From: a virus
Taxonomy: Duplodnaviria; Heunggongvirae; Uroviricota; Caudoviricetes
Virus record (IMG/VR): IMGVR_UViG_2740892028_000001
Location: 1 to 13,634 of that record
Strand: one strand, 5' to 3'
DNA: 13,634 nt
Below the pieces are notes generated by a model. It worked only from the letters and a program-made list of their open reading frames with translations, was not told the DNA's origin and searched no databases. Numbering within the stretch: the stretch's first letter is position 1; the number at the start of each line of letters is the position of its first letter. The position numbers and the translations under genes were made by a program. Positions 1-3,413 of the stretch are shown piece after piece.

Positions 1-825
1 GTTGATACTAACAGCTACGCTCATGGCTTTTGGTGTAGCAGGAGTAACACCTACAGAATCTTCATTCGTAAACTCAGTGAACTTACAAGATATCCCTTCA
101 ACAATTTTAACCGGTCTCTCATTAGAGATGTTAAAAAAATATTTGTTTTTTTCTCCATCACCAGTAAATACAAGATGGGTTCCTTTGCTCCAACTTTTTA
201 ATAATCTTTCAGGCGCTGGTCTATATGTATCCCAATAATCAATGCCAGATCCAACCAGTGAACACCCCTCAGGAATGTTAATATTCTTCTTGATGATGCA
301 TATTCCTTCAGGAATTGTTATAACCGACCTTCCAGAGTTTAAAGCTTTAATAAAAGCATCTGAATCATCTGTTACCCCATCTATTTTTGCTCCCCACCCT
401 CTAACATCTCCACAATCTCTCCATCGTGCCATCTGCAACTCAGGATATTTTTTAGCGCCATCTGGATCTTCTAATTGCGGCCGTAGCTGATCAGGATCAT
501 ACTTCAACACATTAGGAAAATAAAACTGCTGCGCACCATATGCATCATAAACAGCCATAGAATGGCCTTGCACAGTTACGAACTTAGCAATCTGTCCGTT
601 ATATACCGGATATCCAGCAGCGTTAATGATGATTGGTTGCGAAACAGGAACGTGAGAGCCGTCTTCGTTCTCCACATAAACCTGAATCTGGTTTTCAGGA
701 TTTACCGGGTCAGTGTCAATTTTACCGATATAAATTTTGCCATTGGCTACGGCTTTAAAAGAACGCGCCATAGTGAAGAGTTGCGATGGCATTGATACGA
801 TCACATTGGCTGTAATGTCTGTCAT
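1..825 (-). CDS. Tailspike protein, first 275 codons; the gene runs off the window at position 1. Conserved P22/Sf6-type head-binding domain followed by a divergent receptor-binding domain.
   Basis: ATG at 825-823 with GGAG about 9 nt upstream. Minus-strand frame is open from 825 to position 1, which is why it is absent from the ORF track. My translation begins [59 protein letters not shown], matching the P22-family tailspike N-terminal domain as I remember it. The plus-strand ORFs 2..238, 242..490 and 562..795 are antisense to it. Confidence 0.85.
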
Positions 826-882
826 TTAATTTGCTCCAGATACAATGAATCGCCGCAGCGTGGCCACGGTGAATTTTGGGCA

Positions 883-907
883 TAAAAAAACCCAGCCGAA
901 GCTGGGT
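883..907 (-). terminator. Rho-independent terminator downstream of ant, before the tailspike gene
   Basis: On the minus strand: stem AACCCAGC, loop TTCG, stem GCTGGGTT, followed by a run of seven T. Located between the ant stop (926-928) and the tailspike start (825). Confidence 0.7.
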
Positions 908-925
908 TGTCGCGTTGGTTATCTG

Positions 926-1804
926 TCAGTAGTTATGTACTGAAGGAGGTAATTCTTTATTCTTAAGTCTCATCCATGCGGAAAGATTCGCTGGTCCGTC
1001 TGGCTCATTGATATCAACATCTCGTGTGTGATTTATTAAAACGTCTCTCGCCATTCCGATAACATACGAGAATTCATGACCGTAGTCGTAGCATCTGCCG
1101 GAATAGTTCGATTGAATTTGTTTTAATGCCGGATACAGTTCGCGGAATAATGCCTGTGAACGGTTAGCATAATCCCATAGCCATACAAGGCTGTTTGCTT
1201 CTTTTGCAGAAAGCTCGTTTGCTTTCTTCTCTTGTTTGCCGATAAACTCGCCTTCAAGCACTACCCTGTGGATGTACTCTACGGCCAGCGGGATTTGTTC
1301 AATTGAAAGTTCATCAATGCTGTCAATACCAAAACGCTGATGAACCATATTGTATGCATCGTCATAGCGAAGTCCTTTCTTTCCTACCAGCATGTTTACT
1401 GCATCGCGTAGCGGCGTTCTTTCCTCAACAGTGGTTTTCTTGCCTTTCACGTACTCGCCATGTTTGCGAATTGAAGGTAGAACTTCTGCTGTTACCCACT
1501 TGCGGAATTTGTGCGGGACCGAACCTTTATTGACAGCATCGCGGCAGCGCAGAACCAATGTATACATACCTGATTCGCTAACAATGCTTAGATTCTGCTC
1601 ACCGCCAAGGGTGTAACTTAAAGTTACTCCCTTTTCATCGTCATCAAGTGCAGTAAGCGCCTTGCGTGAGTTAGTCAGGGTTAAAGCATCACAAACATCT
1701 TTTGCTACAAACCACGGCTCACCGCATTTGTTGATGACGCGGATTTCACTGTCGCCGAATTTGAAGATGGTGAAATCGTTTTGTGCCTTTGCTATACTTT
1801 TCAT
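926..1804 (-). CDS. ant: Antirepressor Ant with an N-terminal Bro-N/KilA-N-like domain
   Basis: ORF track 926..1870. The 1870 start is a TTG lying 2 nt after the arc stop; the first ATG is at 1804-1802 with AGGAAA about 9 nt upstream. Motif [30 protein letters not shown] is typical of Bro-N antirepressors. Position immediately downstream of arc, as in P22 immI. Start choice is uncertain (1804 vs 1870). Confidence 0.85.
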
Positions 1805-1805
1805 G

Positions 1806-1876
1806 TCAATATTTCCTAATCCGATTTGTTGATACCGAAGCCCTGACTGTTCCCGCAGTTGGGGCTTCAACTTTAC
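1806..1876 (+). ncRNA. sar: Candidate sar-like antisense RNA covering the ant ribosome-binding site and arc-ant spacer
   Basis: Plus-strand -10-like hexamer TATACT at 1793-1798 inside the ant 5' end. A 13-bp stem with two G-U pairs (1837-1849 pairing with 1856-1868, 6-nt loop) followed by AACTTTAC. Predicted transcript is about 70 nt and antisense to the ant RBS, as described for P22 sar. No convincing -35 element. Confidence 0.35.
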
Positions 1877-2034
1877 GCGCCAATGCGCCCTTCCTTCTTA
1901 AAGCTTTCCATTACTCTCTGATAAATCTCAGAGTTAACAGACCGACCATTCTCTTCCGCCACCTTGCGTACCAAATCCAATACTTCTTTAGGCCACCGCA
2001 AATTGAACTGCGGCATCTTGCTCATTCCTTTCAT
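1873..2034 (-). CDS. arc: Arc repressor (ribbon-helix-helix), 53 aa
   Basis: Translation from ATG 2034-2032 is [53 protein letters not shown], essentially the P22 Arc sequence as I recall it. GAGGTG RBS 4 nt upstream. The ORF-track start at 2097 would read through the promoter/operator and is rejected. Confidence 0.95.
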
Positions 2035-2048
2035 ATTCACCTCACAAT

Positions 2049-2069
2049 ATAGGTCCACCGTGGCCCTAT
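2049..2069. promoter_or_regulatory. Mnt operator (Omnt), 21-bp near-palindrome
   Basis: ATAGGTCCACCGTGGCCCTAT; half-sites ATAGGTCCAC and ATAGGGCCAC differ at one position. Lies at the predicted Pant transcription start region. Confidence 0.75.
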
Positions 2070-2097
2070 TGAGAATATAGTAGAGTGCTTCTATCAT
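2069..2097 (+). promoter_or_regulatory. Pmnt promoter, divergent from and overlapping Pant
   Basis: Plus strand: -35 TTGAGA (2069-2074), 17-nt spacer, -10 TATCAT (2092-2097). mnt ATG at 2125 with GGAG 8 nt upstream. Confidence 0.6.
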
Positions 2098-2124: not shown

Positions 2125-2376
2125 ATGGCTAGAGATGATCCGCACTTTAACTTCCGTATGCCTATGGAAGTAAGGGAGAAATTAAAATTCAGGGCGGAGG
2201 CGAATGGGAGATCAATGAACTCCGAGTTGTTACAAATCGTCCAAGATGCTCTATCAAAACCATCGCCTGTGACTGGATATCGCGACGATGCAGAACGACT
2301 CGCTGATGAGCAGTCAGAGCTTGTTAAGAAGATGGTGTTTGATACGCTGAAGGATTTGTACAAAAAAACCACCTGA
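2125..2376 (+). CDS. mnt: Mnt repressor, 83 aa
   Basis: Translation MARDDPHFNFRMPMEVREKLKFRAEANGRSMNSELLQIVQDAL... matches P22 Mnt from memory. Divergent from arc with both operators in the 90-bp spacer. Confidence 0.95.
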   Translation: MARDDPHFNFRMPMEVREKLKFRAEANGRSMNSELLQIVQDALSKPSPVTGYRDDAERLADEQSELVKKMVFDTLKDLYKKTT

Positions 2377-2475
2377 CGGTGAGTTTATTTTTGCATTTAC
2401 CTGGGCCATATTGACTACTTATAAAATGAGATCAATATTTAATCGCCCAATAACGGGTGTATGTTGAGGTATATC

Positions 2476-2655
2476 ATGGCGAAAAAACCAGGTGAAAACA
2501 CAGGAAAAAACGGCGGAATATACCAAGAAGTTGGCCCACGCGGCGGTAAGAAAGACAATTTTGCCACCGTCAAGGACAACGAAAGGCTTCCACCAACAAC
2601 AAAGCCAGGTCATGGCTGGGTATTGGATAAGCGAACTCCAGACAGCAAAAAGTAA
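2476..2655 (+). CDS. Small Lys/Gly/Pro-rich protein of unknown function, 59 aa; accessory (moron) gene
   Basis: ATG 2476 with GAGG 6 nt upstream; the ORF-track start at 2461 lacks a good RBS. Sequence MAKKPGENTGKNGGIYQEVGPRGGKKDNFATVKDNERLPPTTKPGHGWVLDKRTPDSKK has no hydrophobic segment. Followed directly by a terminator hairpin. A loose resemblance to YjzC-like small proteins is from memory only. Confidence 0.6.
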   Translation: MAKKPGENTGKNGGIYQEVGPRGGKKDNFATVKDNERLPPTTKPGHGWVLDKRTPDSKK

Positions 2656-2660
2656 TAATC

Positions 2661-2684
2661 AAGCCGGGTCACTCCGGCTTTTTG
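2661..2684 (+). terminator. Rho-independent terminator after the small accessory gene; hairpin also contains the stop codon of the convergent HExxH gene
   Basis: Stem AAGCCGG, loop GTCACT, stem CCGGCTT, then TTTT. On the minus strand the same hairpin is followed by GATTATTA, so it may act weakly in both directions. Confidence 0.7.
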
Positions 2685-3034
2685 ATATGTCGCTCGCAGA
2701 ACTCAACAAGCCTGCTCATTAAGTAGCAGTAAGTCTCGTTGGCTCTTCCTGGTTCAACATCAACACCTACCCTTGAGCAGATATCGAATGCCATGTGAGC
2801 GCACTCATGGGCAATAGTAGATAGTTTGCCATTGAACACGCCTATCACATGCAAAACACCATTCTCGCTACTCATTGTATGAGACGCTCCGTTGGCGTCC
2901 GAGTCATGCACGTCAACGCCAAGTTTTTGATGCAGGCGTTGCCATTCTGGAAAGTCTCTACAAAACACAATTGTACCGCTCTCAAAGAGCGGTACTAGCA
3001 TCTTTGGTACGTTTCCAATGTTAACTTTTTTCAT
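2669..3034 (-). CDS. Hypothetical 121-aa protein with an HExxH motif (putative zinc-metallopeptidase-like); accessory gene
   Basis: ATG 3034-3032 with AGGA 4 nt upstream. Motif IAHECAHMAF with a downstream Glu (VEPGRANE). Family not recognised by me. Located where P22 carries sieA. Confidence 0.6.
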   Translation of the reverse strand: MKKVNIGNVPKMLVPLFESGTIVFCRDFPEWQRLHQKLGVDVHDSDANGASHTMSSENGVLHVIGVFNGKLSTIAHECAHMAFDICSRVGVDVEPGRANETYCYLMSRLVEFCERHIKKPE

Positions 3035-3064
3035 GGTATCCTGCGCAAAACTAAGGAGGTTGGT

Positions 3065-3394
3065 GTGTTAGAAATAGTCGTACTCGCTCTTGGGATATCC
3101 TGTTGCGTACTATATGCAGGGTTAGCTGCCCTCAAGAAACAGGTTAAGGAATTAGATCGCTCACATGAAATTGATACAAAAATTGCGCGATTAACAGAAG
3201 AGAATAAACACTTAAAAAATTCCATAAGGGCACTAACTGATGACAACTACAAACTGTCCCATGCATTGGCTAAGTGGGAAATAGTAAGTTATGAAAGAAT
3301 GACCGACATGATTTTTTCGTCTTATATGGCTACAAAATCTCCTGAAACATCAGGAAAAGCAATAATTGCAGCCATTGAAAAGAGAATTAAATAG
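3065..3394 (+). CDS. Hypothetical 109-aa membrane-anchored coiled-coil protein; accessory gene
   Basis: GTG start at 3065 with AGGAGG (3054-3059) 5 nt upstream. N-terminal hydrophobic helix LEIVVLALGISCCVLYAGLAAL, then a heptad-like charged region (KKQVKELDRSHEIDTKIARLTEENKHLKNSIRALTDDNYKL). Visibly AT-rich. Convergent with the gp16 gene. Confidence 0.6.
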   Translation: MLEIVVLALGISCCVLYAGLAALKKQVKELDRSHEIDTKIARLTEENKHLKNSIRALTDDNYKLSHALAKWEIVSYERMTDMIFSSYMATKSPETSGKAIIAAIEKRIK

Positions 3395-3413
3395 CCTTCC
3401 TTGGCGTTCATTT

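Follow-up and report, generated by a model that had tools for sequence, protein, structure and literature searches.

An exchanged beta-helix module on a P22-family tailspike and its association with a group 2 capsule of Escherichia coli

The first 825 nucleotides of the window, as the whole 13,634-nucleotide stretch of viral DNA analysed here is called, encode the N-terminal part of a phage tailspike, and the locus raises the question of where the receptor-binding part of this protein came from and which surface glycan it recognises. A sequence-only reading had described a conserved head-binding domain joined to an AT-rich, horizontally exchanged module. The window's own protein ends at aa 275, covering 82 residues of the beta-helix body, while the C-terminal chaperone lies outside the window; full-length features were read from relatives that are 99% identical to it. 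The features at this end of the window are as follows.

1-825, minus strand: tailspike gene, N-terminal 275 codons, from the translation; ATG at 825-823, open to position 1 and cut by the window edge
487-825, minus strand: head-binding (virion attachment) domain, aa 1-113, PF09008
388-486, minus strand: conserved helical linker, aa 114-146, from DNA and protein alignments, model helices and the GC change point
248-387, minus strand: N-terminal cap and first beta-helix coils, aa 147-193, from a PF12708 match and composition
1-247, minus strand: start of the beta-helix body, aa 194-275; the body spans aa 194-694 in the full protein
834-837, minus strand: GGAG ribosome-binding site, 8 nt 5' of the tailspike ATG, read from the sequence
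889-908, minus strand: intrinsic-terminator-like hairpin with T-run between ant and the tailspike gene, from a terminator scan

The full gene was sought in relatives, a check that the sequence-only reading had proposed, and an 824-codon form annotated as 'phage tailspike protein' was recovered from complete E. coli genomes, 20 of 5,426 of which carry the window fragment at 96-97% DNA identity over window positions 1-1000. Among these 20 carriers the distal 2 kb of the gene is 98.9-100% identical. No record matched the window's Ant protein exactly, and the partial protein P0001 (278 aa) has a different residue 9, so that it does not come from the source of the window. The strong hairpin upstream of the gene (AACCCAGCTTCGGCTGGGTT and a T-run) has an 8-bp stem with 5 GC pairs, followed by TTTTTAT, and alignment indicates that it is unchanged in DP051, which holds the closest full-length relative, and in NCCP12480; tailspike expression would presumably need read-through or antitermination past it. 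Within two carriers, Combat2C1 and FDAARGOS_1256, the match to window 1-1000 falls into two pieces that lie approximately 530 bp further apart (at about 870-925), and a 'HNH endonuclease signature motif containing protein' is annotated between ant and the tailspike gene, an arrangement that looks like a mobile intergenic insertion.

The rest of the window is an HK620/Sf6-like (P22-like) late region, 67% of which matches HK620 at 97.4% identity. PHROG and Pfam matches identify the portal C-terminus, scaffold, coat, gp4, gp10, needle, gp14 and the ejection proteins gp7, gp20 and gp16, beyond which come small ORFs of unknown function and then the immI module mnt-arc-ant. The tailspike gene is downstream of gp7/gp20/gp16 and immI and near the attachment site, given its att-side neighbours in L001, L002 and L017, and this is the gene position of the P22 family. 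Integration is at argW/intS in some carriers, E50, O15_8X, W4 and Combat2C1 among them, and beside dacD in others. Next to the tailspike gene, the window holds the following features.

926-1849, minus strand: ant, of a P22-type immI module
within 1873-2097, minus strand: arc, of the same P22-type immI module
2125-2376, plus strand: mnt, with Arc and Repressor_Mnt domains
2461-2655, plus strand: ORF, phrog_3202, unknown function
2661-2680, both strands: bidirectional terminator-like hairpin between convergent ORFs
2669-3034, minus strand: ORF, phrog_1365, unknown function

Promoter-like sites on both strands overlap at 2046-2102 and resemble the divergent Pant and Pmnt promoters. The stretch from approximately 2669 to 3400, between gp16 and immI, is the sole other part of the window as AT-rich as the distal tailspike part (39.1% GC in the 486-nt window from 2906) and holds small ORFs without assigned function at 2669-3034, 3031-3246 and 3065-3394. 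The region between gp16 and immI is the usual site of accessory or moron genes in P22-like phages.

At its N-terminus the protein matches PF09008 over aa 1-113 and over the whole of the model (1-113 of 113; E 1.4e-67, 225 bits, Pfam), in agreement with the earlier statement that the first 115 or so residues form a P22-family head-binding domain. The domain matches PDB entries 7sg7, 8tvr, 2vky and 1lkt, aa 1-120 being approximately 93% identical to Sf6 gp14 (7sg7), with strong similarity to P22 gp9 as well, and its DNA is 82-95% identical to that of HK620, N7, Sf6, epsilon34 and others, with the similarity stopping at nt 487. The divergence that had been placed after about residue 115 holds in so far as the protein aligns with Sf6 and P22 no further than aa ~120-139 and most P22-like DNA similarity ends at nt 487 (aa 113), but there is no sharp break, given that the linker and cap, from aa 113 to ~160, are still common to CUS-3, Gally, 720R6, many E. 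coli prophage spikes and PDB 9vvr. The linker is approximately 90% DNA-identical to the CUS-3 endosialidase spike and to 720R6 down to nt 389, its similarity to Gally and 683R2 reaches nt 421, and it aligns at the protein level with CUS-3, 20AR0300 and 9vvr; the structure model of the 99%-identical protein P0005 has helices at aa 111-137. The pattern DQLRxQLEDxDGAxKYPxLQxxRWRDxxDVRGWGAxGDGxxDD is common to the CUS-3 endosialidase, 20AR0300 and PDB 9vvr spikes. Given that this stretch occurs in spikes with unrelated catalytic parts, the linker appears to act as a common recombination joint.

Composition places the start of the AT-rich module beyond the linker. GC is not uniform across the gene: it is 36.4% over nt 1-387 and 42.5% in the head-binding part, against 47.5% in the rest of the window, and GC3 drops from 0.41 to 0.27 on passing into the distal tailspike part. 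Within the gene, five A/T runs of at least 5 nt lie at window positions 1-486 and none at 487-825, and only 0.4% of 486-nt windows taken elsewhere in the stretch are as AT-rich as the distal part. The linker (388-486) is GC-rich, with 49.5% GC and a composition like that of the head-binding side, and the AT-rich module starts with the cap (248-387; GC 36.9%, GC3 0.30), which is approximately 35% identical to the matching part of the P0009 fibre described below. The best change point by maximum likelihood is nt 388 (aa 146). Within the 825-nt fragment alone the GC step is not significant by shuffling (153 of 500), and on the full-length gene in L001 it has a log-likelihood ratio of 12.1, with 0 of 2000 shuffles; the GC3 of the helix body is 0.26, compared with 0.40-0.53 in the other late genes. 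The AT-richness and A/T runs first noticed over roughly nt 1-480 therefore represent a real step, significant on the full gene, but its boundary is at nt 388 and not near nt 480.

The view that the receptor-binding module was exchanged horizontally is now backed by five independent lines: breakpoints, composition, divergence, adaptors and a body shared with an unrelated prophage. The DNA breakpoints against other spikes are nested, at aa 113 for most P22-like relatives, aa 135 for Gally and 683R2, aa 146 for CUS-3 and 720R6 and aa ~154 for many E. coli prophage spikes. Comparison of the window with DP051 identified 17 differences in gene nt 1-347 and 4 in nt 348-825 (Fisher p=4e-4); few differences distally against many proximally indicate a near-identical distal module on diverged backbones. 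The 162-aa distal fragment matched partial proteins only, and the homologue search was repeated with a full-length relative. A 918-aa fibre in an unrelated prophage has the same helix body at 98.8% DNA identity (gene nt 579-2083, aa 194-694, of the tailspike), and this fibre (P0009 type, for example in ECONIH2) adjoins holin/GH19 lysis genes in a prophage at yfgI. Relatives of the body and chaperone at 40-82% identity are carried on four N-terminal adaptors (PF09008, PF18668, PF03906 and PF12571), and at least one relative of the module, P0010, belongs to a phage with a tape-measure gene, which is thus long-tailed. A further protein, P0033 (826 aa), joins a T7-type portal N-terminus (PF12236, E 2e-105) to the helix/chaperone module, a chimera that probably stems from an error of assembly or gene calling and not from a genuine fusion.

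It could be supposed instead that no exchange took place and that the distal part diverged in place from a P22-type domain, the low GC being a consequence of relaxed constraint, and the beta-helix fold common to all P22-family receptor-binding domains would suit such a history. However, the breakpoints are sharp, the near-identical copy of the body has unrelated flanks in another type of prophage, the module also occurs on different adaptor families, the distal part is more conserved among carriers than the head-binding part, and the GC3 of the chaperone is unlike that of the adjoining body. The distal part matches neither the P22 nor the Sf6 receptor-binding domain. In-place divergence is hardly credible and has effectively been refuted already. 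Judged by its sequence relationships, the full protein is put together as a mosaic from four or more exchangeable segments, namely the head-binding domain, the linker and cap, the beta-helix body and the chaperone.

The body begins within the window, where aa 194-275 contain a 19-residue motif conserved in the family. A match to the pectate-lyase-like family PF12708 covers aa 141-196 (window 238-405; E 6e-7, 29.9 bits against a 27-bit cut-off), and the motif at aa 144-162 (window 340-396) that had been likened to the start of pectate-lyase beta-helix domains lies inside it, for the most part in the cap. On the full DP051 protein the match scores 27.2 against 27 bits, and the assignment, marginal by sequence, is clear by fold. 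The AlphaFold2 model, a monomer of P0005, is confident over aa 140-660, which form a right-handed parallel beta-helix as in P22-family tailspikes, and over aa 700-824. Its fold neighbours among phage proteins are the P22 tailspike, GVE2 ORF18, phi29 gp12, the CBA120 spikes and Klebsiella and Acinetobacter depolymerases, and among enzymes GH28 and GH110. The structure comparison that had been suggested thus returned a beta-helix spike or depolymerase fold, but all matches are at 10-17% identity and the substrate is not indicated by them. Four acidic residues, D305, D308, E339 and E351, are invariant in 49 homologues and are candidate catalytic residues, and the body is likely to be the substrate-binding and catalytic module; as a P22-family member, the tailspike would be a homotrimer with endoglycosidase activity on a host surface glycan. 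The catalytic region is predicted to fold as a beta-helix and not as a GH58 beta-propeller, and the match to PF12219 is limited to the stalk (profile 118-160, aa 650-692; 20.4 against 25 bits). The tailspike is an ordinary mosaic P22-family spike and not an endosialidase.

The C-terminus, in contrast to the catalytic region, resembles that of endosialidases. Against PF13884 the DP051 protein reaches 21.4 bits, slightly below the 22-bit cut-off, and homologues of the module reach 22.6-53.6 bits. Residues T692, S693, D694 and K698 are at least 90% conserved in 49 homologues, and S693 and K698 lie five residues apart in STSDETLK (aa 691-698), in the manner of the Ser-Lys dyad of S74 chaperones that was established from endoNF. 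In the predicted model this segment matches 3gw6, 4uw8 and 3gud by Foldseek (TMt 0.75), phmmer returns 7y5s, 4uw8 and 3gw6, and the segment is 88-90% identical to the chaperones of other spikes. Conservation of the dyad suggests that, once the trimer has folded, cleavage at Ser693 probably removes the chaperone. Its GC3 (L001, aa 695-824) is 0.47, compared with 0.26 in the adjoining body. Since the tailspike gene and that of the ECONIH2 fibre cease to be similar at gene nt 2083, inside STSDETLK, the cleavage motif seems to serve as a recombination joint as well.

Since the fold comparison gave no substrate, the receptor was sought through the glycans of the lysogens, on the rule that P22-like prophage spikes match the surface glycan of their lysogen. 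O-types were read from PGAP wzx/wzy names: DP051 is O5, NCCP12480, O15_8X and M160133 are O15, VG38-53E1 is O2/O50 and three carriers are O83. Typing by rfb map distance did not extend to E50 (which is rearranged), O15_8X, W4 and Combat2C1, and O15_8X was assigned to O15 by a wzy search. ECONIH2, which has only the helix body in common, is O6. The O-antigen was tried as the receptor and rejected: the O5 wzy is present in 1 of 20 carriers, O83 and O15 account for three carriers each, and no O-type is itself enriched in carriers, these making up 1 of 35 O5 genomes, 3 of 35 O83 genomes and at least 3 of 100 O15 genomes among the matches listed (60). No O-antigen-modification genes (gtr, O-acetylase) were found beside the tailspike gene in the carrier neighbourhoods. 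Given the diverse O-types, the minority of carriers in each and the lack of modification genes, a single O-antigen receptor is unlikely. In DP051 an IS1 lies between galF and rfbB (L003 27752-28449) and in M160133 fnlA is frameshifted (L011 7097-8130); such lesions of the O-antigen cluster may leave these strains with little or no O-antigen and the capsule as the outermost glycan.

The capsule behaves differently. All 20 tailspike carriers have the same group 2 kps region 2, a locus present in 108 of the 5,426 genomes (P=1.5e-35; P=1.9e-14 when collapsed to 8 lineages), and so do 8 of the 9 strains whose fibre has the helix body in common (P=1.7e-13), the remaining one, GF43, having the fibre but not the capsule locus. 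The module is present in 28 of the 108 capsule-positive genomes. Its occurrence tracks one capsule type across at least four O-types, as would a capsule depolymerase, although co-occurrence is an association and not proof that the capsule is the substrate. Region 2 in the carriers falls into three allele classes differing by 2-2.5%, the hosts, from several continents, include human, bovine and chicken, and kps is near pheV, approximately 1 Mb from either attachment site. From these co-occurrences, the receptor is most likely the group 2 (kps) capsule and not the O-antigen.

Three other accounts of the receptor have to be weighed against the capsule. Lederbergvirus spikes are by default O-antigen endoglycosidases of the classical P22 type, as in P22, Sf6, HK620 and the spike of the O104 prophage, and such an activity would agree with the head-binding domain, the gene position and the predicted fold, which is that of O-antigen-specific spikes. 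Yet a 98.9-100% identical distal module occurs with four unrelated wzx/wzy types (O5, O15, O83 and O2/O50), carriers are a small minority within each (for O15, as counted among the matches listed) and no gtr or O-acetylase seroconversion genes flank the gene, such that an O-antigen target is unlikely. The diversity of O-types would also be expected if the spike bound a glycan common to all E. coli, such as colanic acid, enterobacterial common antigen, NGR glycan or the LPS core, with an indirect link to the capsule; a 57%-identical homologue in phage SD2, one of the Phi92-like phages with spike arrays that include a colanidase, also speaks for such a target, which is nevertheless very unlikely and slightly less probable than the next account. 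In this last, the capsule association would reflect hitch-hiking by descent or linkage, or the exclusion of competing phages by the capsule, rather than the substrate. Descent or linkage is a poor explanation for an association that is spread over at least four O-types, two integration sites (argW and the dacD side), three region-2 allele classes, several host species and several continents, and that involves loci ~1 Mb apart; furthermore, an unrelated prophage type that has the helix body alone in common shows the same association. Hitch-hiking or exclusion is accordingly a little less probable than an O-antigen target.

The group 2 capsule is therefore preferred, and its type can be proposed from the locus. 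Region 2 has genes for GalE, for a bifunctional GT2/Kdo-transferase-like enzyme and for an O-acetyltransferase, and this gene content matches the kTYPr K14 reference, a cluster of 13.9 kb with only two numbered specific genes, whose K14_8 is 761 aa long and carries a GT-A domain at its N-terminus. The K14 polymer contains Kdo, which fits the KpsS/C-like domain encoded in region 2. K14 is also frequent, is found in many sequence types and is present in CC131, and JJ1886 carries the region-2 locus; the K14 reference serotype is O6:K14:H31, ECONIH2 being O6 here. K52, the classical partner of O15, was considered and is disfavoured by gene content alone, since its specific genes are numbered to at least 13, compared with two and galE here. 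Because the K14 label is drawn from gene content, sizes and epidemiology, we infer the type rather than read it; given that the receptor is the capsule, K14 is nonetheless highly probable. Chemically, K14 is an O-acetylated GalNAc-Kdo polymer. Where the sequence-only reading had held the glycan specificity to be beyond assignment, it still cannot be read from the fold, but co-occurrence and gene content now allow a group 2 capsule, probably K14, to be proposed.

Taken together, these observations suggest how the spike may work. Residues 1-113 would attach the spike to the tail hub, and the conserved helical linker and helix cap that follow (aa 114 to ~193) would double as the recombination joint. 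The right-handed parallel beta-helix of aa ~194-694 would bind a surface polysaccharide and probably cleave it, and aa ~695-824 would be an endosialidase-type intramolecular chaperone, probably released at Ser693 after the trimer has folded. On this account recombination brought in the distal modules from a pool common to unrelated phages. The window holds the 5' third of the gene, and the phage is temperate, of the HK620/Sf6-like (P22-like) kind, and integrated in E. coli; its receptor is most likely the kps capsule. The best overall explanation, a P22-like modular spike with exchanged distal modules and a group 2 capsule receptor, probably K14, is given a probability of about 0.7. The narrower proposal that the body (aa ~194-694) is the first identified K14 depolymerase, moving among at least two unrelated temperate phage types in K14 ExPEC lineages whatever their O-type, stands at even odds; K14 does not appear among the K antigens that a published list gives as having phage depolymerases, and no report of a K14 depolymerase was found.

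As a mosaic tailspike the protein offers nothing conceptually new, the swapping of receptor-binding modules on conserved or variable anchors being a textbook pattern in P22-like and many other phages. It does indicate that the target of a prophage spike can be inferred from genome co-occurrence even where fold searches are uninformative, and it provides a candidate enzyme that could be cloned (aa ~114-693) for use on a capsule of clinical importance, probably K14, which is reported to be a top-five K-type of bloodstream infection with the second-highest invasive potential. If the proposal is true, the enzyme could be used for K-typing, capsule stripping and retargeted pyocins, for which the O104 prophage spike is a precedent.

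Among known systems, P22 gp9, Sf6 gp14 and HK620 gp9 have the same head-binding domain, gene position and right-handed beta-helix, but there is no sequence similarity past aa ~120-139, their targets are O-antigens and they are without an S74-type releasable chaperone. The phi29 gp12 pre-neck appendage and ORF18 of Geobacillus virus E2 are more distant, with 12-14% identity, Gram-positive hosts and other modes of virion attachment, and their substrates (teichoic acid for phi29 gp12) differ from that of the tailspike. Of the solved structures, PDB 9vvr (843 aa) is nearest in sequence to the part outside the head-binding domain, having a similar linker and cap (aa 214-291, E 3e-15) and chaperone (E 1e-11), whereas its helix body has no detectable similarity and its N-terminal adaptor is another one. 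Conversely, the P0009-type 'tail fiber domain-containing protein' (918 aa) has the body (aa 194-694) and the capsule association (8 of 9) in common with the tailspike, but its N-terminal ~265 aa, helix cap and chaperone are unrelated. The precedent for a capsule-specific spike is CUS-3, the K1-specific P22-like prophage of E. coli RS218. Its spike has a GH58 sialidase beta-propeller where a beta-helix is modelled here, its capsule type is another one, and the tailspike gene described here has no neuO-like capsule-modifying gene beside it. The two are alike in the P22 head-binding domain, the linker and cap (~90% DNA identity to aa 146), the endosialidase-type C-terminal chaperone, the temperate P22-like backbone, argW integration in some carriers and, as proposed here, a group 2 capsule receptor. 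By this analogy the tailspike resembles the CUS-3 spike in its predicted working, with another catalytic module and another capsule.
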